In this document: in pieces, positions 2,025 to 58,714 of the stretch
How positions within the stretch are numbered: position 1 is the stretch's first letter
Layout: the number at the start of each line of letters is the position of its first letter
Source of the DNA: Escherichia coli
GTDB lineage: Bacteria > Pseudomonadota > Gammaproteobacteria > Enterobacterales > Enterobacteriaceae
Reading direction: 5' to 3' (one strand)
Assembly (NCBI RefSeq): GCF_016903815.1
Contig: NZ_CP069973.1
Length of the DNA: 64,000 nt
Notes under the pieces: generated by a model
The model's input: only the letters and a program-made list of their open reading frames with translations
The model's database searches: none
What the model was told of the DNA's origin: nothing
Made by a program: the position numbers and the translations under genes

Positions 2025-2049
2025 GCCCGCACATTGCTGCGGGCTTTTT
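2025..2049 (+). terminator. Rho-independent terminator after uspF
   Basis: gcccgcacattgctgcgggc stem-loop followed by ttttt. Confidence 0.6.
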
Positions 2050-2506
2050 GATTCATTTCGCAAATGTGCTGACATTTTCCCCTCTAATCCGTACCATACA
2101 CGCCACAGTTTTTATATCAGATTTCTTATGCTGGGCGTTCCGGCATGACGCATACTCTTCTGATGCCATATAACGAATTGAGTCGCTTTTAAATGTCGCA
2201 AAATCAAGAAATTAGTAAGAAAGAACAATACAACCTGAACAAGTAAGGGCAAAAATCACAACTCTCTGACTCATAAGTATTTTACTTATTTTTCAATGTG
2301 TTAAATATCATCAGCGACAACAATAAGCTACGATAACCCACTCTTTTTTTGCCCCTTTTTTGCCCCTTTTGCAGCGCTTTGCCCCATTTTTGCCATCAAC
2401 AATTTTCCTCATCAAGTCATTTCAAAGCCTAATAGGTGCCCTACTTTTTTCCTCAGTACCACGTCGCCAGCAGGAAACAACCTAATCCCGGTTCGGATCT
2501 AAAATT

Positions 2507-2525
2507 GCTAATGATAATCATTTTC
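2507..2525. promoter_or_regulatory. Fur-box-like site upstream of sitA
   Basis: gctaatgataatcattttc closely resembles the Fur consensus GATAATGATAATCATTATC. Confidence 0.5.
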
Positions 2526-2547
2526 ATTTTGTATTGCTTATGCTATA

Positions 2548-2569
2548 AAACATAGCCGTTGCTATGTTT
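2548..2569. promoter_or_regulatory. MntR-box-like palindrome upstream of sitA
   Basis: Perfect inverted repeat aaacatagc-cgtt-gctatgttt immediately upstream of the sit start; matches the Mn-responsive MntR operator pattern. Confidence 0.55.
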
Positions 2570-2601
2570 GTTCTAATTTTGCTCACTATAGGTACTAAAT
2601 T

Positions 2602-3516
2602 ATGTACTCAATAAAAAAAGTAACCATGCTCTTGGGGTGCCTCGCCCTCACCTGCTCGATCGCATTTCAGGCGAGTGCAACTGAAAAATTCAAGGTCATT
2701 ACAACATTTACCATCATCGCAGATATGGCCAAAAACGTGGCTGGAGATGCTGCAGAAGTCTCATCCATAACCAAGCCCGGTGCAGAAATTCATGAGTATC
2801 AGCCTACCCCTGGCGATATTAAACGTGCGCAGGAGGCACAACTGATTCTCGCCAATGGTATGAATCTGGAATTGTGGTTCCAACGCTTTTACCAGCATCT
2901 TAATGGGGTTCCAGAAGTAATTGTCTCTTCGGGTGTGACGCCAGTAGGGATCACTGAAGGCCCCTATGAGGGCAAACCTAACCCCCATGCCTGGATGTCG
3001 CCAGATAATGCTCTGATTTACGTCGATAATATTCGTGATGCGTTGATAAAATACGATCCGGCAAATGCACAAACCTACCAACGTAATGCCGATACTTATA
3101 AAGCCAAGATTACCCAAACCCTTGCCCCCCTGCGTAAGCAGATTGCTGAACTCCCTGAGAATCAGCGATGGATGGTCACCAGTGAAGGGGCTTTTTCTTA
3201 TCTCGCACGCGATTTGGGGCTAAAAGAGCTTTATCTGTGGCCGATTAATGCCGATCAACAAGGCACGCCGCAGCAGGTACGTAAGGTTGTTGATATGGTG
3301 AAGAAAAATCATATCCCGGCAGTCTTTAGCGAGAGTACGATTTCCGATAAACCAGCGCGTCAGGTTGCGCGTGAAACCGGCGCGCACTACGGCGGTGTAC
3401 TCTATGTCGATTCCCTGAGCACAGAAAACGGCCCGGTACCTACGTATATCGACCTTCTGAAGGTTACTACCAGTACGCTGGTACAGGGAATTAAAGCCGG
3501 GAAAAGGGAGAAATAA
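2602..3516 (+). CDS. sitA: Mn/Fe ABC transporter periplasmic substrate-binding protein SitA
   Basis: 304-aa ORF with signal peptide and cluster A-1 metal-binding protein features; first gene of a 4-gene operon with overlapping stops and starts. Confidence 0.85.
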
Positions 3517-4343
3517 TGATGCAATCTGCGGGCATTGTCGTTAATGATGTTACTGTCACCTGGCGTAACGGGCACACAGCACTGCGCGATGCATCCTTCA
3601 CAGTACCAAGTGGATCTATTGCCGCTCTGGTTGGGGTAAACGGTTCCGGAAAATCGACGTTGTTTAAAGCGATTATGGGATTTGTGCGTCTGACCAGCGG
3701 AAAGATATCTGTTCTGGGTATTCCCACGCGACAGGCGCTACAGAAAAACCTGGTTGCCTACGTCCCTCAGTCAGAAGAGGTTGACTGGTCATTTCCTGTA
3801 CTAGTGGAAGATGTGGTGATGATGGGCCGCTATGGGCACATGGGTATGTTGCGTATAACCAAAAAGAGGGATCGTCAGATTGTCACCGATGCGCTGGAAC
3901 GTGTCGATATGGTGGATTTTCGCCATCGACAAATCGGCGAGCTTTCCGGTGGACAAAAGAAACGCGTCTTTCTGGCGAGAGCGATTGCACAGCAGGGTGA
4001 TGTGATCCTGCTGGATGAACCTTTTACCGGCGTTGATGTGAAAACCGAAGCGAAAATCATCAGCCTGTTGAGGGAGTTACGCGCGGAAGGCAAGACGATG
4101 CTTGTCTCAACGCACAATCTCGGCTCAGTCACGACATTTTGCGATTATACGGTCATGGTCAAAGGCACCGTCCTGGCAAGCGGGCCGACAGACACCACTT
4201 TTACAGCCGAGAACCTGGAGCTGGCTTTTAGCGGCGTACTGCGCCATGTCACACTTAACGCCTCGGAAGAAAGCATTATTACTGACGATGAACACCCTTT
4301 TGTGGCACATCGACCGTCAGCGGTGCAGAGGGAAGCAAGATGA
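3516..4343 (+). CDS. sitB: Mn/Fe ABC transporter ATP-binding protein SitB
   Basis: Walker [13 protein letters not shown] signature LSGGQKKR, Walker B ILLDEP. Confidence 0.85.
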
Positions 4344-5197
4344 ACGTGCTACTGGAACCCTTCAGCTATGAATATATGCTCAATGCGATGTGGGTCTCGG
4401 CGATGGTCGGCGGTCTCTGCGCTTTCCTGTCATGCTATCTGATGCTAAAAGGCTGGTCGCTGATTGGCGATGCGCTGTCGCACTCTATTGTCCCGGGTGT
4501 TGCGGGGGCATATATGCTGGGGCTTCCGTTTTCTCTGGGAGCCTTCTTTTCCGGCGGACTGGCAGCGGGCAGCATGCTGTTTCTTAACCAACGCACTCGC
4601 TTAAAAGAAGATGCCATCATCGGCCTGATCTTCTCCTCCTTTTTTGGCCTGGGGCTGTTTATGGTGTCATTGAACCCGACATCCGTGAACATTCAGACCA
4701 TCGTCCTAGGCAATATTCTGGCAATCGATCCGGCGGATATCCTGCAACTCACTATCATTGGCATTCTCTCGATCATCGTGCTTTTTTTCAAATGGAAAGA
4801 TCTTATGGTGACCTTTTTCGACGAGAATCACGCCCGTGCTATTGGATTGCATCCGGGCAGATTAAAAATCCTCTTCTTCACCCTGCTGTCGGTTTCGACC
4901 GTTGCGGCGCTGCAAACGGTTGGTGCCTTTCTGGTGATCTGTCTGGTGGTGACTCCCGGTGCAACAGCATGGTTGTTAACCGATCGTTTTCCCCGCCTGC
5001 TCATAATTGCTGTAACTATTGGCAGTGTAACCAGTTTCCTCGGCGCGTGGGTCAGTTACTTTCTGGACGGCGCGACAGGTGGAATCATCGTGGTGGCGCA
5101 GACACTGCTGTTTCTTTTAGCATTTGTATTTGCGCCCACCCATGGGCTTTTGGCAAATCGTCGGCGTGCGCATAAAGCGCTGGAGGATCGCTCATGA
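4340..5197 (+). CDS. sitC: Mn/Fe ABC transporter permease SitC
   Basis: 285-aa polytopic membrane protein, ABC-3 permease-like; 4-nt overlap with sitB. Confidence 0.85.
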
Positions 5198-6051
5198 TGG
5201 CATTATTACTGGAGCCACTGCAGTTCACCTTTATGAGTCACGCACTGCTGATTTCACTGGTAGTTTCCATACCCTGTGCGCTGCTGTCGGTCTTTCTGGT
5301 CCTGAAAGGTTGGGCACTGATGGGTGACGCGATGAGTCATGCGGTTTTTCCTGGCATCGTGCTTGCCTGGATTCTGGGGTTACCTCTGGCTACAGGGGCA
5401 TTTATCGCCGGAGTATTCTGCGCGGTGGCGACGGGATACCTGAAAGACAACAGCCGAATCAAGCAAGATACAGTGATGGGGATTGTTTTTTCTGGCATGT
5501 TTGCCGCAGGTCTGATCTTGTATATTGCAGTCAAACCAGACATACATCTTGACCATATTCTTTTCGGCGACATGCTCGGGGTAACCATCGGCGATATAAT
5601 CCAGACGATGATTATTGCCGGGCTGGTTACACTTGTTATTAGCGTAAAATGGCGGGATTTTTTGCTGTTCAGCTTTGATTATCAACAGGCGCAGGTAAGC
5701 GGTTTGCATACGCGATGGCTGCATTATGGGCTGCTGTGCATGGTTTCCCTGACCATTGTGGCGACGCTGAAAGCAGTAGGTATCATTCTCTCCATTTCTC
5801 TGCTCATTGCGCCTGGCGCCATTGCGGTACTCCTGACACAACGCTTTCATATTGCACTCCTACTGGCGACTGGCATATCGGTAATAGTCTCAATGACTGG
5901 TGTTTGGCTGTCCTTTTTTATCGACAGCGCACCAGCTCCGACGATTGTCGTCTTATTCGCGGTTGTGTTCATCATGACGTTTACCGTTATCAGTTTCAAC
6001 GCACGCACAAAGGGAAACGCTCATAGACAGGATCTGTTATCCCCCAATTAG
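5194..6051 (+). CDS. sitD: Mn/Fe ABC transporter permease SitD
   Basis: 285-aa membrane protein paralogous to SitC; 4-nt overlap with sitC. Confidence 0.85.
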   Translation: MMALLLEPLQFTFMSHALLISLVVSIPCALLSVFLVLKGWALMGDAMSHAVFPGIVLAWILGLPLATGAFIAGVFCAVATGYLKDNSRIKQDTVMGIVFSGMFAAGLILYIAVKPDIHLDHILFGDMLGVTIGDIIQTMIIAGLVTLVISVKWRDFLLFSFDYQQAQVSGLHTRWLHYGLLCMVSLTIVATLKAVGIILSISLLIAPGAIAVLLTQRFHIALLLATGISVIVSMTGVWLSFFIDSAPAPTIVVLFAVVFIMTFTVISFNARTKGNAHRQDLLSPN

Positions 6052-6523
6052 CACAACATCCGAGGGCAGCATTGTCCGCTAGTACACTGCAGTCCAGAAA
6101 GTCATGGGCGGACGTTGGGAGGAGGCGCTAATCCTTTCATACAAAAAATATGTAAAATCAATAACGGCTGTAAATCATTCAATACTCGCACTATCGGAAG
6201 TTCACCAGCCAGCCGCAGCACGTTCTTGCATACGACGTGTCTGCGGTTTCAACTTCACCAGTCCACCAATCACGATGGACAGTGCCAAGACAGCACTAGC
6301 AAAAACAGGAAATTAGCAGTCTCAGCAGAACACCGACCAGACGGTGAAGAAACAAAAAAGGATACGCAAAGGGGCCGCAGTTCCCGATTGATAAAAAAGC
6401 CAGCTTATGCGCTTTTTTTTCATGTATTATTAAGTATTGGTTAGCGTCTTTTTAATCAGAACTTTAAAGACAAGCCATTTGTAAGAAAACCGACAGATTC
6501 GGTTGACAAGCAGGAGTAATACT

Positions 6524-31578: not shown

Positions 31579-31590
31579 AGGTCGCCGCCC
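31579..31590 (-). other. cosN 12-nt cohesive end (GGGCGGCGACCT on the minus strand) within the cos region of about 31420..31650
   Basis: Plus strand reads aggtcgccgccc; flanking sequence matches the lambda left and right ends in reverse complement (recalled from the lambda sequence). Confidence 0.8.
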
Positions 31591-31789
31591 CGTAACCTGT
31601 CGGATCACCGGAAAGGACCCGTAAAGTGATAATGATTATCATCTACATATCACAACGTGCGTGGAGGCCATCAAACCACGTCAAATAATCAATTATGACG
31701 CAGGTATCGTATTAATTGATCTGCATCAACTTAACGTAAAAACAACTTCAGACAATACAAATCAGCGACACTGAATACGGGGCAACCTC

Positions 31790-33218: not shown

Positions 33219-33489
33219 GATGTTACCGTAGTATGTGAGTATCCATCGAATAGACACCAAGCAAAAAAGCTCCCGAAGGAGCCTTCATTTTCACTTTTTT
33301 AAATCCAACGACAGACGGCTGGCATTTAAGTATTGTGAAATATTATCAAATGTAATCATCATTGATTTACAAAAGATACATTTTGCCCCGAAAGGATTCA
33401 TGTCAGAAACATCAAAAGATGATGTTCTATACTGGGAACCATGACAACACGGGCATCTAAAGTGAATATGGTTTGTAATATTGTCTACC

Positions 33490-33702
33490 TCAAAGCGCCA
33501 CTACATGAACAGCGGCAGGACCTTTAGGTCCGTTCTCAATACCAAATTCAACTTCCTGATTCTCAGTTAATGTTTTGAAATCGTTGCTCTGAATTGCTGA
33601 GAAATGGACAAACACATCTTTGCTGCCATCTTTCGGCGTGATGAAACCAAAACCTTTTTCAGGGTTAAACCATTTCACTAAACCAGTCATTTTGTTAGAC
33701 AT
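33490..33702 (-). CDS. cspI: Cold shock protein CspI-like
   Basis: [23 protein letters not shown]... with RNP1 and RNP2 motifs. Confidence 0.85.
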
Positions 33703-34064
33703 AATTATTACCTTTTGAAGAAATTAGCCCTTGGGCAGAATGGTCCGAAAAAAAATATCAGAGAGAAAAACCAACAAGGAAATCTCAAGAGGTACAAATA
33801 ATAAAATTATAACAATGACTGCTTCAGATAAATTTGTAACAAACCAGAACACCATTAACGCATGATTAACCACCCATAGCAAGGATTACTTTTGTAAAGA
33901 AAAACACAGCAATGAAAGAATAGCTTTATTTATTAATAAAACGTGTCATTCTGATTAAGACCTTTTATCTTACCCTTAAGATTTCAGGAATTTTGGCTCA
34001 TGGAAGAGTCCTTTTTATTTAAATTTTACATTCCGCGATGTAAATGTTCCGATTTAATATTACC

Positions 34065-36119: not shown

Positions 36120-36810
36120 CTCTTACCAGCCGCGCCCTAACAGGCGCACACGATCTGACATTTGCATCCAACTTCGTTACTTACGGCCCGTAAACGGGCT
36201 GCCCGGATAGGGAATCGATAACTGCTCTCCCATTTTATCCTCTTCAAGCTGGTGCTTTATGTAATCCTGTATCTTCGCCGTGTTCTTACCCACTGTATCG
36301 ACGTAGTACCCTCTGCACCAGAACTCCCTGTTCCTGTATTTGAATTTCAAATCACCAAACTGCTCGTAAAGCATCAGACTGCTTTTCCCTTTCAGATATC
36401 CCATAAACCCGGATACGCTCATTTTGGGCGGGATCTCCACAAGCATATGGATATGATCTGCACAGCATTCAGCTTCCAGAATCCGTACGCTTTTCCACTC
36501 ACACAGCTTTCTCAAAATACTGCCTATTGCTCTACGCTTCTCTCTGTAGAACACCTGTCTTCGGTATTTTGGCGCAAAAACTATGTGATATTTACAGTTC
36601 CATCGGGTGTGCGCTAAGCTCTTTTCGTTCCCCATTGGGACCCCCTTTTGATTTCTTGTTTGACACTTGCAGTTGCCAGACCGCAAGGTGTTTTAACAAA
36701 TCAAAAGGGGTTTTAATAACTGGCTCAAAGCTGAAAGCTTTCCGGAACCCCCAGCCTAGCTGGGGGTTTTCTGTGCACAATAAAAAACCCGCCTGAGCGG
36801 GTTTGAGATT
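36120..36810 (-). mobile_element. IS200-like insertion sequence (approximate bounds)
   Basis: 152-aa Y1 transposase with hairpins upstream (acccccagcctagctgggggtttt, aacccgcctgagcgggttt); about 0.7 kb, typical of IS200. Confidence 0.55.
36177..36635 (-). CDS. tnpA: IS200/IS605-family transposase TnpA (Y1 HUH)
   Basis: MGNEKSLAHTRWNCKYHIVFAPKYRRQ...HIHMLVEIPPK...; HUH motif (HIHML) and catalytic Tyr region. Confidence 0.85.
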   Translation of the reverse strand: MGNEKSLAHTRWNCKYHIVFAPKYRRQVFYREKRRAIGSILRKLCEWKSVRILEAECCADHIHMLVEIPPKMSVSGFMGYLKGKSSLMLYEQFGDLKFKYRNREFWCRGYYVDTVGKNTAKIQDYIKHQLEEDKMGEQLSIPYPGSPFTGRK

Positions 36811-37085
36811 GTGGTGCTTTTTGTGGGAGTCATCCACTTACGCACTTTGTTTTGCCATGCCAGCAGTTAGCTTCTGCTGTAAAACTATTCATGCAGCAAA
36901 CCTGCACTTCACCACAATGGTTAGCATACTTTTCCTGATTAAGATTTTGCCAAATATGCTAGCCATTGTTTCATGTATTGGACCTCCTTACTTTTTATTA
37001 AAGAGATCCAATATTCACTACTCTGTCCGTATCTCTACTCAGGCATCAGCCTTCTTCGTTATCGTATACAGACGAGCGATGAATT

Positions 37086-37301
37086 TTAATCAGTAATGAT
37101 GACATTTGCTGCTGCAGGACCTTTAGCACCACTCTCTATAGAGAAGGTAACCTTTTGACCTTCAAATAAGGTTCGATAATTATCATTCTGAATCGCAGAA
37201 AAATGCACAAACACATCTTTACTACCATCAACAGGAGAAATAAAGCCGAAACCTTTATCAGCGTTAAACCATTTTACTAAACCAGTCATTTTATTTGACA
37301 T
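37086..37301 (-). CDS. cspB: Cold shock protein CspB-like
   Basis: [23 protein letters not shown]..., 71 aa. Confidence 0.85.
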
Positions 37302-37601
37302 TCTACATTCCTTAACTTGAGCCTTTCGGCATAAATGGTTTGCATAACAGAAACGACTTCGTACTTAATTGGAGAGACTCAAAGAAGGAATAAGTGAATA
37401 ACACCTGAAATGAGAACTGCTTTAGTAAACTACTTCGTATATCGTCTGTTCTTCAAACCGACGCAATCATTAACGCATAGTTGAACATATGAAGCAATGT
37501 TTATTTTAGACATCCAGCCATCTTCAACCCCATCAAAAAACTATAGCTTTCTTCAGGAACGTGTGTATAGTGCGCCAAGTTATCAGTATTAAGGAATTTT
37601 T

Positions 37602-44300: not shown

Positions 44301-44717
44301 TGTTAACAATAGCCTGCTTCTCCGTGCCTTTCGGCACGTAAGAGGCTAACCTACATGTGTCTAGCATGAAATTGGCCTCAGATTAATGTTAAGCGTCTTG
44401 CAGGACGCGTAATGTTAACTGGGGCTTTTCTCTATCTGCCTTTGGTGTTCGTGCCCGAGGCAGATAGCCTCAAGCACCCGCCGTGATTCTACAAAAACAT
44501 TACCCACCTTTCCAGCAATTCACAACAACTCCATGCAAATAGTAAGTAGAATAATAAGTTATTAGTATTAGCAATTTACTTAGTTTCTAATTTGTGCCAA
44601 TGATTTTCATTTTTGCATGAAAAATACCTTAACATTTTATATTTACTTACTATTTGTAAGCCCCATCAGTTCTTTCTGATGGCGGCTGGTATTTCAGTTC
44701 CAGATATAGTATATGCT

Positions 44718-45746
44718 TTACGCCTTAATAGGGTTAATCACATTTCCGCTATCCGTACCATAGTATTTTTTTGTAGTCATGCCTTGTTTATAATAATCAT
44801 TTAACAGTTTGAGAAAGTTTCTTCCTTGCCTCTCATCTTCTATGACTAATTTACCATGCTCATTGGTCTTAAACTCTTCGTTCTGAAACATTTTTAGCAC
44901 ATCATTCATAGCTTGAACATCATTCTTTTCCAGAACCGTATGGTTACCTTTCTCAGCGATATGAGTGAGAATTTTTCTCAGTGATGGCTTATGAAGAATA
45001 GCTTGTTCAATAACATCTAAACCTTCAATAAGATCAAGTTCTTTAATTGTATTTAATGTTTTTTGTGCAGCTTCTGTAAACTCAACCTCCAAGCCTACAA
45101 TAGCCTCAAAACTTTTCTTATGAAATACATAAAATTGATCTTTTATATAAATACAATCGATTTTGTCATCAAAATTGACTGCGCTGCCATCAAATGATCT
45201 TAACTCTTTATCTGTTTTATCAAACAAAGCGAATACGCGCTGAGTCATATTTTGTGGTTCATTTGTTGTGACTTTCCCCCTGCTGATTTTTCGGAAAGAA
45301 TAAGTGACGTCAGCCCCCTTTTGGACTTTAATACAATAGGCCCACAAATCATTCTGAACCTCAGCAAGAGAGGTAAGTACAACTGGTTTATCATTCTTTA
45401 TATCGTTATTAATAACTTTTGAAAACGATATCGCGTTATTCATAGCATAGGCATAAATTTTATTATCAATATCATCATCAATAACAGTATGCTTTTTCAT
45501 CACAATATCATCTTTCGAAGCATGAGAAATAATCTGGTTTGATAAAGTATACTTAAAAAATTTAGCAATATCTGGAGCGATTGGAGCTTTAATGATTTTA
45601 AAATCGAATTTATCAACAACTCTTGCGGTTCTACTCATACCCGCTTTAAGATGTCTAGTAATGAAATACAACGATATTTTCGCCGCATCATCATCCTTAA
45701 GTTGCTCAGCATACTCTAATAATTCTTCAAGCTTTAACATTTTCAT
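44718..45746 (-). CDS. Soluble partner protein of candidate defense operon (KwaB-like by architecture, unverified)
   Basis: 342-aa Lys/Asp-rich AT-rich ORF; start overlaps the stop of the upstream membrane-protein gene (ATGA). Confidence 0.5.
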   Translation of the reverse strand: MKMLKLEELLEYAEQLKDDDAAKISLYFITRHLKAGMSRTARVVDKFDFKIIKAPIAPDIAKFFKYTLSNQIISHASKDDIVMKKHTVIDDDIDNKIYAYAMNNAISFSKVINNDIKNDKPVVLTSLAEVQNDLWAYCIKVQKGADVTYSFRKISRGKVTTNEPQNMTQRVFALFDKTDKELRSFDGSAVNFDDKIDCIYIKDQFYVFHKKSFEAIVGLEVEFTEAAQKTLNTIKELDLIEGLDVIEQAILHKPSLRKILTHIAEKGNHTVLEKNDVQAMNDVLKMFQNEEFKTNEHGKLVIEDERQGRNFLKLLNDYYKQGMTTKKYYGTDSGNVINPIKA

Positions 45747-46357
45747 TCCTTATGGGATTCAGCATAAAAAAGTTTTGGGCCCACGTCCTCAACATCAAGA
45801 AGATCATCTTCCTCCAAATACTTTGATTTAGTCAAAACCATACCAGTGCGTTTTTTGTCGCTTTCTAAATCCAAATATGTAACTTGATATAAAGTATAAT
45901 TAATACTTATTGTAGGATTTATAAGTATCATGCTTGAATTAATATATATTAAAGCCGTTACCGTTAACAATATTGCTATAGGTATAACATTAGTTAAAGT
46001 GGATAGATCCTGAAATACAAACGGAATTATATATGTAAAAAGATAGCTTATTGATTCATTGTTTTTATTTTCAATATCTATAACTCTTACAGTTCTACCA
46101 CTAGTGGCGCATCGACGTTTTATATTTTTTAAAAAAATTGTTAATCCTACAATACCAAATAATGATAATACACCAATGACACTGACCGCGCCAAAGTATT
46201 TAAAGAAAATAGTTAATGATTCAACACTTATACCTTTCCAATTTAAATAGCTTCTATAAGTATACAATTGCACAAAACACATGATAAAGAATAGGGGAAG
46301 GTATGACACTATAAATAGCGAAACTCTAGCACCTAAATGTAGTTTATTTACTCTCAT
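45743..46357 (-). CDS. Four-helix membrane protein of candidate defense operon (KwaA-like by architecture, unverified)
   Basis: 204-aa ORF with four hydrophobic stretches (about residues 12-32, 55-76, 103-115, 124-140) and an acidic C-terminal tail. Confidence 0.5.
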   Translation of the reverse strand: MRVNKLHLGARVSLFIVSYLPLFFIMCFVQLYTYRSYLNWKGISVESLTIFFKYFGAVSVIGVLSLFGIVGLTIFLKNIKRRCATSGRTVRVIDIENKNNESISYLFTYIIPFVFQDLSTLTNVIPIAILLTVTALIYINSSMILINPTISINYTLYQVTYLDLESDKKRTGMVLTKSKYLEEDDLLDVEDVGPKLFYAESHKE

Positions 46358-51198: not shown

Positions 51199-51256
51199 TT
51201 TTCTGGTGACGTTTGGCGGTATCAGTTTTACTCCGTGACTGCTCTGCCGCCGTTTT
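51199..51256 (+). ncRNA. dicF: DicF small regulatory RNA
   Basis: tttctggtgacgtttggcggtatcagttttactccgtgactgctctgccgcc followed by a T-run; matches the DicF sequence from memory. Confidence 0.8.
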
Positions 51257-54692: not shown

Positions 54693-54792
54693 CTAAAAGC
54701 CACACTAACGTAACCGGCTCATTTAAACCGTCTGGTCTGTTTCCTCCGGCTCTACAAAAATAATGTCCATCATTTTTAATGGACACTATCGT

Positions 54793-55440
54793 ATGAAACA
54801 CCGGACCTGGATCACTGAAGCTTTACGTCTTCACTTTGAAGAACATTTACCCCGGGTTGTGGCCGGGCGTCGCCTGGGTGTACCAAAATCAACAGTTTGT
54901 AGTATGTTCGTGCGCTTTCGGAGAGCTGGCCTTTCGTGGCCTTTGCCCGCAGGCATGTCGGAGCAGGAACTTGATGCCTGCCTTTACGGACAATTTTCCA
55001 CGGTACCAGTCGTACGTCCTGAAAGCACCGTTATATCCGAAGCCCCCGTGGTAAAAAAACGTCCCCGGCGGCCCAACTTCCCTTATGAGTTTAAAATCGC
55101 CTTAGTGGAGCAGTCACTGCAGCCCGGAGCCTGTGTGGCGCAGATCGCCCGGGAAAACGGAATCAACGATAACCTGCTCTTCAACTGGCGCCATCAATAC
55201 CGGAAAGGTGGCCTGCTGCCTTCCGGAAAAAATATGCCGGCACTGCTTCCCGTGACGTTAACGCCGGAGCCGGATAATAAAATCCCGGCCCCCGCACAGG
55301 AACCAGAGCAGATAAATACACCGTCCGACAGTCTGTGTTGTGAGCTGGTTCTGCCGGCCGGAACTCTCAGGCTTAAAGGTAAACTGACGCCGGCGTTATT
55401 ACAGACACTTATCCGCGAAATAAAAGGGAGCAGCCACTGA
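54793..55440 (+). CDS. IS66-family accessory protein TnpA
   Basis: HTH-containing ORF with KRPRRPNFPYEFKIALVEQSL...; start uncertain (54763 or 54793). Confidence 0.7.
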   Translation: MKHRTWITEALRLHFEEHLPRVVAGRRLGVPKSTVCSMFVRFRRAGLSWPLPAGMSEQELDACLYGQFSTVPVVRPESTVISEAPVVKKRPRRPNFPYEFKIALVEQSLQPGACVAQIARENGINDNLLFNWRHQYRKGGLLPSGKNMPALLPVTLTPEPDNKIPAPAQEPEQINTPSDSLCCELVLPAGTLRLKGKLTPALLQTLIREIKGSSH

Positions 55441-55787
55441 TGATATCTCTCCCTGCAGGTTCGCGTATCTGGCTGGTTGCAGGTATCACCGATATGCGAA
55501 ATGGCTTTAACGGCCTGGCATCAAAAGTTCAGAACGTCCTGAAGGATGACCCGTTCTCCGGACACCTGTTCATCTTCCGCGGACGCCGGGGTGACCAGAT
55601 AAAAGTGTTGTGGGCTGACAGTGACGGACTGTGCCTCTTCACCAAACGCCTGGAGCGGGGCCGCTTCGTCTGGCCAGTCACCCGTGACGGCAAGGTGCAC
55701 CTTACTCCGGCTCAGTTATCCATGCTTCTTGAAGGTATCAACTGGAAGCACCCGAAACGAACGGAACGCGCTGGAATCCGCATATAA
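55440..55787 (+). CDS. IS66-family accessory protein TnpB
   Basis: 115-aa ORF MISLPAGSRIWLVAGITDMRNGFNGLA... Confidence 0.85.
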   Translation: MISLPAGSRIWLVAGITDMRNGFNGLASKVQNVLKDDPFSGHLFIFRGRRGDQIKVLWADSDGLCLFTKRLERGRFVWPVTRDGKVHLTPAQLSMLLEGINWKHPKRTERAGIRI

Positions 55788-55806
55788 CCCGTTGTAAAGT
55801 GAGGAT

Positions 55807-57378
55807 ATGGACACCTCACTTGCTCATGAGAACGCCCGCCTGCGGGCACTGTTGCAGACGCAACAGGACACCATCCGCCAGATGGCTGAATACAACCGCC
55901 TGCTCTCACAGCGGGTGGCGGCTTATGCTTCCGAAATCAACCGGCTGAAGGCGCTGGTTGCGAAACTGCAACGTATGCAGTTCGGTAAAAGCTCAGAAAA
56001 ACTTCGTGCAAAAACCGAACGGCAGATACAGGAAGCACAGGAGCGAATCAGCGCACTTCAGGAAGAAATGGCGGAAACGCTGGGTGAGCAATATGACCCG
56101 GTACTGCCATCCGCCCTGCGCCAGTCTTCAGCCCGTAAACCGTTACCGGCCTCACTTCCCCGTGAAACCCGGGTTATCCGGCCGGAAGAGGAATGCTGTC
56201 CTGCCTGTGGTGGTGAACTCAGTTCTCTGGGATGTGATGTGTCAGAGCAACTGGAGCTTATCAGCAGCGCCTTTAAGGTTATCGAAACACAACGTCCGAA
56301 ACAGGCCTGTTGCCGGTGCGACCATATCGTGCAGGCACCAGTACCTTCAAAACCCATTGCACGCAGTTATGCCGGAGCGGGGCTTCTGGCCCATGTTGTC
56401 ACCGGGAAATATGCAGACCATCTGCCGTTATACCGCCAGTCAGAAATATACCGTCGTCAGGGAGTGGAGCTGAGCCGTGCCACACTGGGGCGCTGGACAG
56501 GTGCTGTTGCTGAACTGCTGGAGCCGCTGTATGACGTCCTGCGCCAGTATGTGCTGATGCCCGGTAAAGTCCATGCTGATGATATCCCCGTCCCGGTCCA
56601 GGAGCCGGGCAGCGGTAAAACCCGGACAGCCCGGCTGTGGGTCTACGTCCGTGATGACCGTAACGCCGGTTCACAGATGCCCCCGGCGGTCTGGTTCGCG
56701 TACAGTCCGGACCGGAAAGGTATCCATCCACAAAATCACCTGGCCGGTTACAGCGGTGTGCTTCAGGCCGATGCTTACGGTGGTTACCGGGCGTTATACG
56801 AATCCGGCAGAATAACGGAAGCCGCGTGTATGGCTCATGCCCGGAGAAAAATCCACGATGTGCATGCAAGAGCGCCCACCTACATCACCACGGAAGCCCT
56901 GCAGCGTATCGGTGAACTGTATGCCATCGAGGCAGAGGTCCGGGGCTGTTCAGCAGAACAGCGTCTGGCGGCAAGAAAAGCCAGAGCCGCGCCACTGATG
57001 CAGTCACTGTATGACTGGATACAGCAACAGATGAAAACACTGTCGCGTCACTCAGATACGGCAAAAGCGTTCGCATACCTGCTGAAACAGTGGGATGCAC
57101 TGAACGTGTACTGCAGTAATGGCTGGGTGGAAATCGACAACAACATCGCAGAGAACGCCTTACGGGGAGTGGCCGTAGGCCGGAAAAACTGGATGTTCGC
57201 GGGTTCCAACAGCGGTGGTGAACATGCGGCGGTGTTGTACTCGCTGATCGGCACATGCCGTCTGAACAATGTGGAGCCAGAAAAGTGGCTGCGTTACGTC
57301 ATTGAACATATCCAGGACTGGCCGGCAAACCGGGTACGCGATCTGTTGCCCTGGAAAGTTGATCTGAGCTCTCAGTAA
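55807..57378 (+). CDS. IS66-family transposase TnpC
   Basis: 523-aa ORF with N-terminal leucine zipper, CxxC zinc-finger region and DDE core. Confidence 0.85.
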
Positions 57379-57433: not shown

Positions 57434-58714
57434 ATGAAATATCCGACAGGCGTGGAAAACCATGGAGGGAAATTACGTATCTGGTTTGTTTATAAAGGCG
57501 TAAGAGTCAGGGAAAACCTGGGGGTTCCTGACACAGCAAAAAACAGGCGCGTTGCAGGTGAGCTACGCGCCTCTGTTTGTTACGCAATAAAAACTGGTGT
57601 TTTCGACTATGCAAAACAGTTTCCCTCCTCACGCAATCTGGAAAAATTTGGTGAGACCCGACAAGATTTAACCATAAAAGAACTGGCTGAAAAATTTCTG
57701 GCACTGAAAGAAACTGAAGTCGCAAAAACATCACTCAACACATACCGTGCCGTCATCAAAAATATCCTGAGCATAATCGGTGAAAAAAATCTTGCCTCAT
57801 CGATTAATAAAGAAAAATTACTGGAGGTTCGTAAAGAGCTACTGACTGGATACCAGATCCCCAAAAGTAACTATATTGTTACACAACCAGGGAGATCGGC
57901 TGTAACTGTAAATAATTACATGACAAATCTTAACGCCGTGTTCCAGTTTGGTGTTGATAACGGTTACCTGGTAGATAACCCGTTTAAGGGGATCTCGCCA
58001 TTAAAGGAATCAAGAACCATTCCGGATCCTCTTTCGCGGGAGGAATTCATCCGTCTTATCGATGCGTGCAGAAATCAGCAAGCCAAAAATTTATGGTGTG
58101 TTTCTGTTTATACTGGCGTTCGCCCTGGTGAGCTGTGTGCACTTGGATGGGAGGACATAGATCTGAAAAATGGAACAATGATGATCAGGAGAAATTTAGC
58201 AAAAGACCGTTTCACGGTACCAAAAACACAGGCGGGAACCAATCGGGTCATTCATCTTATTAAGCCAGCAATCGACGCTCTCCGGAGTCAGATGACATTA
58301 ACGAGACTGAGCAAAGAGCATATCATTGATGTTCACCTCAGAGAGTATGGCAGAACAGAAAAACATAAATGCACCTTTGTTTTTCAACCTGAAGTGTCAG
58401 CGAGAGTAAAAAATTATGGTGACCATTTTACCGTTGACTCAATAAGGCAGATGTGGGACGCAGCGATAAAACGTGCCGGACTCCGCCATCGAAAATCATA
58501 TCAGTCGAGACATACTTATGCCTGCTGGTCGCTGACAGCTGGTGCTAACCCGGCATTTATAGCAAACCAGATGGGCCATGCAGATGCGCAAATGGTATTT
58601 CAGGTATACGGAAAATGGATGTCTGAAAACAATAATGCACAGGTAGCTTTGTTAAATACACAGTTAAGCGAGTTTGCCCCAACCATGCCCCATAACGAAG
58701 CAATGAAAAATTAA
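57434..58714 (+). CDS. intQ: Prophage tyrosine integrase
   Basis: MKYPTGVENHGGKLRIWFVYKGVRVRENLG... arm-binding N-terminus and C-terminal catalytic region (...HTYACW...); the IS66 element ends 25 bp upstream of the start. Confidence 0.8.
   Translation: MKYPTGVENHGGKLRIWFVYKGVRVRENLGVPDTAKNRRVAGELRASVCYAIKTGVFDYAKQFPSSRNLEKFGETRQDLTIKELAEKFLALKETEVAKTSLNTYRAVIKNILSIIGEKNLASSINKEKLLEVRKELLTGYQIPKSNYIVTQPGRSAVTVNNYMTNLNAVFQFGVDNGYLVDNPFKGISPLKESRTIPDPLSREEFIRLIDACRNQQAKNLWCVSVYTGVRPGELCALGWEDIDLKNGTMMIRRNLAKDRFTVPKTQAGTNRVIHLIKPAIDALRSQMTLTRLSKEHIIDVHLREYGRTEKHKCTFVFQPEVSARVKNYGDHFTVDSIRQMWDAAIKRAGLRHRKSYQSRHTYACWSLTAGANPAFIANQMGHADAQMVFQVYGKWMSENNNAQVALLNTQLSEFAPTMPHNEAMKN

Follow-up and report, generated by a model that had tools for sequence, protein, structure and literature searches.

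The DNA between uspF and sitA contains, upstream of sequences that resemble binding sites for the metal-responsive repressors Fur and MntR, an unusual tandem repeat in which runs of T are followed by GCCCC. This arrangement raises the question of whether the repeat takes part in the control of the sit operon, was left behind when the operon arrived, or belongs to a different element. We addressed it in a stretch of 64,000 nucleotides of Escherichia coli DNA, referred to here as the window. BLAST comparison with 5,426 complete E. coli genomes showed that positions 2020 to 2620 of the window are 100% identical to strain 7/2 (NZ_CP023820.1), the annotation of which is collinear with the window except for one copy of IS1. 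At ~32700 of the window (compared with locus L003, 1244-1941), the offset relative to strain 7/2 changes by 777 bp, the combined length of an IS1 copy and a target duplication of 9 bp, and the window thus comes from a close relative of strain 7/2 without that IS1. Downstream of sitABCD, lambdoid tail, head, lysis, and early genes lead to an integrase gene, which is followed by the 5' end of ydfJ and by rspB.

Genomes with an empty site match the window only over 2020-2242 and then continue into ttcA. The promoter-like site downstream of the uspF terminator lies in the segment from which these genomes run on into ttcA, and in the window it is aimed at ttcC', the P arm, and sit, a function that remains putative. 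The ttcC' remnant is the 5' end of ttcA severed by integration of a Rac-type prophage (Liu et al., PMC4632033), and the remnant in the window is identical to that in the attR of the K-12 Rac prophage. An attB feature annotated in the phage record Rac-SA53 coincides with the core given in Table 1. The “uspF-sitA intergenic region” of the original prediction is in fact a composite: after the uspF terminator come the orphaned promoter of ttcA and its remnant ttcC', then the attR core, the P arm, and finally the sit promoter. Comparing the region by BLAST between strains with and without sit, as had been proposed, separates the att arm from the sit DNA. Overall, we consider it probable that the interval comprises two adjoining and functionally separate modules, namely, a Rac-type attR (2193-2395) with putative arm-type units and a sit cargo under the control of Fur and MntR.

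Table 1. Features of the window, in order of position (strand left empty where none is assigned)
Feature	Position	Strand	Description
ompN, then uspF	uspF stop at 2017		First genes in window order
uspF intrinsic terminator	2025-2044	+	Terminator-like hairpin, then T-run, directly 3' of the uspF stop
Promoter-like site of the original ttcA, orphaned	2069-2097	+	CTGACA-17-TACCAT, 9/12 match
ttcC' remnant	2193-2246	+	18-codon ORF, original ttcA 5' end; product MSQNQEISKKEQYNLNK, then stop
attR core	2217-2242		26-bp identity AAGAAAGAACAATACAACCTGAACAA with attL inside ttcA
P arm of Rac-type attachment site	2243-2395	+	Phage DNA left between core and cargo
IHF-like site TTTCAATGTGTTA	2291-2303	+	12/13 to WATCAANNNNTTR; between core and arm repeats; predicted to bind IHF
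Five phased T-run + GCCCC units	2344-2395	+	Spacing of 9-12 bp; candidate arm-type sites for an IntR-family integrase
Unit R1	2344-2355		TTTTTTTGCCCC; by eye
Unit R2	2356-2366		TTTTTTGCCCC; by eye
Unit R3	2367-2377		TTTTGCAGCGC, degenerate; by eye
Unit R4	2378-2385		TTTGCCCC; by eye
Unit R5	2386-2395		ATTTTTGCCA; by eye
sit cargo module	2396-6160	+	Own promoter plus sitABCD, 3.8 kb; flanked by the outermost arm unit and a conserved element of the prophage
Fur box GCTAATGATAATCATTTTC	2507-2525		17/19 to GATAATGATAATCATTATC; overlaps predicted -35
Predicted sitA promoter	2521-2549	+	-35 TTTTCA (2521-2526), 17-nt spacer, extended -10 TGcTATAAA (2541-2549)
MntR operator AAACATAGC-CGTT-GCTATGTTT	2548-2569		Perfect palindrome
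sitABCD Mn/Fe ABC importer operon	2602-6051	+	ORFs and RefSeq annotation of collinear strain 7/2
Five Rfam matches typical of Qin-like prophages	33463-33848, 36645-36768, 37070-37462, 44308-44479, 51201-51252		Two cspA thermoregulator leaders, STnc490, sok antitoxin RNA, DicF
Integrase (Qin-like half of hybrid prophage)	57434-58714	+	Annotated tyrosine recombinase
P'-arm-type pair TTTGCCCC-aacc-ATGCCCC	58673-58691	+	In int 3' end; orientation as the 2344-2395 repeats

The sit promoter

A Fur-box-like 19-mer, a perfect MntR-type palindrome, and the repeat had all been placed in this interval by the original prediction, and rereading of the sequence together with pattern scans confirmed the coordinates given for each. 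All three features are genuine and exceed chance expectation by a wide margin. The Fur consensus, allowed up to three mismatches, found no match in any of 100 shuffles of the window, and the palindrome is the only match to its pattern in the window, with half-sites identical to those of K-12 mntH. The sitA promoter escaped a sigma-70 scan, as its -10 element ends in A. The promoter was instead assigned by eye and from conservation, its -10 block being invariant in our alignment of sit loci (A1), and transcription is predicted from sequence to start near 2556. Apart from the uspF terminator, a terminator scan flagged only the MntR palindrome, a trivial hit.

The Fur box is conserved in four sit contexts, including copies at the ttcA site, chromosomal copies at the icd site, and plasmid copies. 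The MntR operator is likewise conserved in four E. coli contexts, with a single C-to-T change in the plasmid copy, and both elements are present in the diverged sit operon of Citrobacter braakii. A scan of the genome collection with a combined Fur and MntR pattern returned five loci, of which two were relevant, and missed Salmonella. Between the Fur box and the ATG, the sit contexts show hardly any variation, and the DNA farther upstream varies and lacks the repeat. Since these other contexts keep the promoter without the repeat, the repeat appears, on this comparison, to have no part in sit regulation.

The arrangement of the operators suggests how repression could be achieved. The Fur box would cover the -35 element and the MntR palindrome the edge of the -10 element plus the predicted start site, so that each repressor could block RNA polymerase on its own, Fe-Fur and Mn-MntR acting independently as in mntH. 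Repression of sitABCD by both Fur and MntR in Salmonella and Shigella is described in reviews (PMC3852070, PMC8970401) and is credited to Ikeda 2005 and Runyen-Janecky 2006 as cited in PMC3852070. Together with the conservation of the operators and the parallel with mntH, these sources support the original prediction that Fur and MntR control sitA; this part of it was correct and corresponds to established knowledge on a virulence-associated Mn/Fe importer.

A role for the repeat in sitA transcription could still be imagined if the phased T-tracts formed intrinsically curved DNA serving as an upstream element or as a nucleation site for H-NS. The T-runs begin at 2344, 2356, 2367, 2378, and 2387, approximately 160 to 210 bp upstream of the predicted sitA start, and H-NS has been reported to influence excision of Rac (PMC4632033). 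However, plasmid-borne sit copies and those at the icd site retain the Fur/MntR promoter in the absence of the repeat, and in phages of other genera it is GCCCC that is kept and not the T-runs, which suggests sequence-specific recognition. We therefore regard this explanation as very unlikely.

The T-run/GCCCC repeat in attachment-site arms

Tandem Repeats Finder assigns the repeat a period of 11. It finds TTTTTTGCCCC in 2.4 perfect copies between 2345 and 2370 and, at 72%, in 4.8 copies between 2346 and 2394. The repeat units lie 102 to 153 bp from the attR core, which itself contains no TGCCCC. No Rfam family was matched in the repeat region, and folding of the repeat was no better than that of shuffled sequences (z = 0.12), with no RNA or DNA secondary structure; an explanation at the level of RNA or structure was rejected on these two results.

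The K-12 Rac prophage carries the repeat and lacks sit. It is 99.2% identical to the window over 2020-2395, every repeat unit included, and diverges after 2395. In an alignment of Rac-like attR arms (A3), two blocks stay conserved, the repeat units and the IHF-like site. The counterpart of the latter in phage PHB10, AATCAATTAGTTA, is a perfect match to the IHF consensus, although this consensus carries little information. The arms of PHB10 and of the O111 prophage are otherwise diverged and have kept the units. Four different cargos are represented in this alignment, namely, ynaM/ydfK (K-12), tail fiber genes (Rac-SA53), genes for DUF1076 proteins (O111), and sit (the window and EcPF15), and homology among the prophages that carry them ends right after the last unit, TTTTTGCCA(C/T).

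These results bear on the proposal that the repeat could be a recombination scar or the boundary of the sit island. As a boundary, the repeat was read rightly by position, as sit-specific DNA begins at ~2396, after the last unit. A functionless scar, formed by slippage or illegitimate recombination where the island inserted, would account for the exact coincidence of the repeat end with the start of sit-specific DNA, and slippage can produce tandem 11-bp units. Yet the repeat is integral to the Rac-type attachment site: it is 99% identical in a Rac prophage without sit, occurs next to three other cargos, keeps its units in PHB10 and O111 although the arms have diverged, and recurs beside the integrase gene and in phages of other genera. 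The idea of a scar does not survive these observations, and its probability is now close to negligible.

When both strands of the 64-kb window are considered, TGCCCC pairs on one strand with a distance of 25 bp or less are found at only two places, at 2350-2386 and at 58675/58686. The second place falls at the 3' end of the integrase gene of the prophage, equivalent in position to a pair that follows the stop codon of K-12 intR. In K-12 attL, this pair (GTTTGCCCCC-AATTTGCCCC) immediately follows the intR stop; its orientation is the same, its spacing is 11 bp, and it lies 49 to 70 bp from the core.

A BLAST search of phage records with the arm gave only three records, and relatives were then sought by means of the integrase protein. 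Phage PHB10, with an integrase 69% identical to IntR, has an intact attP. On its int side, the int stop is followed by TTTTTGCCCC, TATTATGCCCC, and TATTGGCTCC and then by a ttcA-like 5' ORF with the core; approximately 100 bp farther on, the far side has the four units TTTTTTTGCCCC, TATTTCGCA, TTTTTGCCCC, and TAAATTTGCCCC. An Stx1 phage (43% Int identity) has a pair at the 3' end of int, an annotated attachment site, and four units some 125 to 175 bp farther on. In Aeromonas phage AsXd-1 and Klebsiella phage RothD (approximately 42% Int identity), a pair at the 3' end of int is matched by a second pair ~165 to 175 bp downstream, and in these two phages from other genera GCCCC is conserved and the T-runs are not.

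Ends of attL from IMG/VR were informative for the few loci with sequence beyond the integrase gene, given that only eight had DNA downstream and most end 3 to 6 bp after int. In the seven ttcA-type ends, two units (TGCCCC or a one-base variant) lie 11 bp apart within diverged flanks; in one of the seven (L089), both units are changed to TGCCTC. Among 303 kb of loci chosen for containing att sites, 18 of 20 GCCCC-N5-7-GCCCC pairs fall in att arms, and the other two are in IS elements; with loci chosen in this way, the figure is supportive but gives no unbiased estimate for whole genomes. The units in the attR of K-12 Qin are only degenerate.

The position of the int-proximal pair relative to the coding sequence differs among these elements. 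In Rac and PHB10 it lies just 3' of the int stop codon, and in the int genes of Qin-type prophages, RothD, and AsXd-1 it lies inside the reading frame (window 58670-58714; L104 2415-2460; L103 2430-2475), where it encodes the C-terminal tail of the protein (EFAPTMPH.. in the window and DFAPSMPH.. in RothD). There, the DNA sites and the Int protein tail are entangled, and a coding constraint on FAPxMPH could explain part of the conservation of the int-proximal pair in several members of the family.

The integrases themselves are a possible binding partner. IntR contains the Pfam domain Arm-DNA-bind_2 (PF12167; residues 4-68, E = 4e-26), and the integrase of the window is 43% identical to IntR (BLASTP E = 5e-117) in an end-to-end alignment that includes this N-terminal domain. 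No solved structure of an Arm-DNA-bind_2 arm-binding domain was found by sequence, and no description of TGCCCC arm sites or of IntR binding was found in the literature searched, which was that outside subscription journals. Because the repeat is shared with a Rac prophage that lacks sit, occurs in both arms of attP, and belongs to a family whose integrase has an arm-binding domain, the T-run/GCCCC units, which make up the distal end of the P arm, most likely serve the integrase as binding sites of the arm type. The N-terminal domain of an IntR-family integrase would then bind the five units, and, by analogy with lambda, Int protomers may bridge the arm sites and the core across bends induced by IHF and Xis, giving rise to an excisive complex.

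The units in the P arm could alternatively be bound by the excisionase XisR, a recombination directionality factor, instead of by the integrase. The binding sites of directionality factors are often phased direct repeats that contain A/T tracts and are confined to one arm, and the five units, T-rich and phased at ~10 to 11 bp, are typical of Xis arrays; in addition, XisR shifts a 294-bp attR fragment and leaves an adjacent control fragment unshifted (PMC4632033). However, the motif is also found beside int in attL and in P' arms, where Xis sites of the lambda type are not expected, which argues for Int over XisR as the binder. AsXd-1 and RothD carry matched pairs in both arms, and the arm-binding domain of Int needs targets, for which the arms offer no other repeated motif. 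Binding by XisR in place of Int is thus improbable as an account of the repeat, even though some of the P-arm units may be Xis sites, given the reported shift of the attR fragment.

If the units are arm-type sites for Int, pairs of (T)TGCCCC approximately 11 bp apart could represent a common arm code of the whole PF12167 family, which includes Rac IntR, Qin-type Int, the integrases of Stx1 and Stx2 phages, Gifsy-2, Fels-1, and Klebsiella and Aeromonas phages. Core and attB specificities would differ among the members, prophages residing in the same cell could titrate or assist each other's integrases, and the outermost unit would form a docking boundary for cargo. This generalization is tentative, and we would put its chances at slightly below even. 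If it holds, the Rac-like and Qin-like pair in this genome, or multiple Stx phages in enterohemorrhagic E. coli (EHEC), would be candidates for cross talk. Confirmation of the TGCCCC units would provide a simple sequence marker delimiting attL and attR in a large family of integrases, including those of Stx phages, and would allow predictions as to which prophages can still excise.

The sit cargo and the hybrid prophage

The edges of the sit cargo can be placed by homology. On the left, homology to K-12 stops at 2395, homology to plasmid-borne sit starts at 2389, and chromosomal copies of the UTI89 type match the window from ~2419. On the right, a conserved element beginning CGGCTGnAAATCATTCAATACTC starts at ~6165, and the same element directly follows the arm in Rac-SA53 and in K-12 Qin. 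EcPF15 carries the same cargo in a Rac-like prophage that has not been inverted, with ttcA, intR (there a pseudogene), tail genes, sitDCBA, attR, and uspF in succession. Approximately 9% of complete E. coli genomes (494/5,426) have sitABCD at a Rac-type attachment edge. Taken together, sitABCD is a self-regulated set of cargo genes, the position of which coincides exactly with the border of a Rac-type attachment site, and the odd repeat next to it is a putative part of the prophage recombination machinery, neither an element of sit regulation nor a scar.

Other sit loci have different surroundings. In UTI89 and EC5931, sit lies near an icd' remnant of an e14-type site, at a distance of 0.9 to 1.9 kb, for which reason we gave up the candidate rule that every sit locus adjoins an arm. 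Plasmid copies are bounded by IS1 and are 85% identical. One plasmid (NZ_CP020934.1; L011, 2960-3010) carries TTTTTGCTTTGCCAT, which resembles a remnant of the outermost units of a Rac-type arm (window 2377-2400) and suggests that the plasmid sit copy was captured from a prophage-end location. In an Escherichia contig (NZ_JAATUR010000011.1; L099, 1150-1200), the uspF terminator is fused straight to TTTGCCCCATTCTTGCCAT, followed by sit. A deletion here eliminated ttcC' and the att core together with most of the arm, of which only the last two units remain, and sit is thereby locked in place.

The prophage of the window (2243-58770) is a hybrid. Its attR is of the Rac type (ttcC'), and its int end is of the Qin type, adjoining the 5' end of ydfJ and rspB. 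In strain 7/2, ttcA, intact intR, xisR, and Rac-like early genes are found at 1.542 Mb, and tail genes, pinQ, ydfK, ynfT, and ydfJ' are found at ~1.59 Mb. The gpJ and Lom proteins of this reciprocal hybrid are identical to those of the window, which indicates that ~250 kb was inverted by homologous recombination in J/lom between inversely oriented Rac-like and Qin-like lambdoid prophages. In each hybrid, the two att sites do not match. The attR of the window is orphaned, its cognate attL-intR-xisR segment being far away and in inverted orientation. It cannot, as such, support excision, and the sit operon is therefore in effect fixed in the chromosome.

Several other features of the hybrid were noted. 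In its Qin-like half, an IS66-family element (ISCro1-like, with tnpA, tnpB, and a transposase gene) occupies 54763-57378, between the excisionase and integrase genes, and probably uncouples int from upstream control. On the minus strand at 44718-46357, the annotation of strain 7/2 gives a protein with a Kiwa KwaB-like domain and an adjacent protein of 204 aa; this pair is possibly an antiphage defense cargo within the prophage. The window also contains RNA families typical of Qin-like prophages (Table 1). A second Fur-box-like 19-mer, GTAGATGATAATCATTATC, matches the consensus at 16 of 19 positions (31628-31646, minus strand) and is situated between nohA and ynfO, in a lambda-type cos region beside AGGTCGCCGCCC at ~31581-31592. 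The same sequence is present near the right end of phage lambda, and the resemblance to a Fur box may be coincidental.

Comparison with known systems

Regarding the promoter, sitABCD of Salmonella and Shigella represents the same operon under the same two repressors. It was compared here by way of secondary sources, and it differs in that the context in the window is the end of a Rac-type prophage. The promoter of K-12 mntH has identical MntR half-sites about a 4-bp center, AAACATAGC-AAAG-GCTATGTTT, with a Fur box that again precedes the MntR operator, at a similar distance. However, the center is AAAG in mntH and CGTT in sit, and mntH encodes an NRAMP transporter of the core genome, whereas sit encodes an acquired, prophage-borne ABC importer.

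The attachment site has its closest counterpart in the attR of K-12 Rac, with 99.2% identity over 2020-2395. The two differ in what follows, as K-12 continues into ynaM/ydfK/pinR and the window into the sit cargo, and in that the attR of the window has been parted from its attL by an inversion.

The attP of phage lambda contains the arm-type Int sites P1, P2, and P'1 to P'3 in addition to sites for IHF and Xis. The arm-binding domain of the Rac-type integrases belongs to another Pfam family (PF12167) than that of lambda, and the arm sites proposed here are defined by sequence. Their motif is (T)TGCCCC, whereas that of lambda is CAGTCACTAT; the Rac-type units are all in one orientation, whereas P2 of lambda is inverted; and the Rac-type P arm has four to five contiguous units at its very end. 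In both systems, the integrase is of the heterobivalent tyrosine type and has a domain for arm binding at its N terminus, and both have short repeats unrelated to the core on either side of it, 50 to 150 bp away and in tandem at ~10 to 11 bp. A putative IHF site separating the core from the distal sites would be a further parallel, and in both the P' sites adjoin int. The TGCCCC units, as computationally defined arm-type sites, would thus belong to a kind of element that is already well known.
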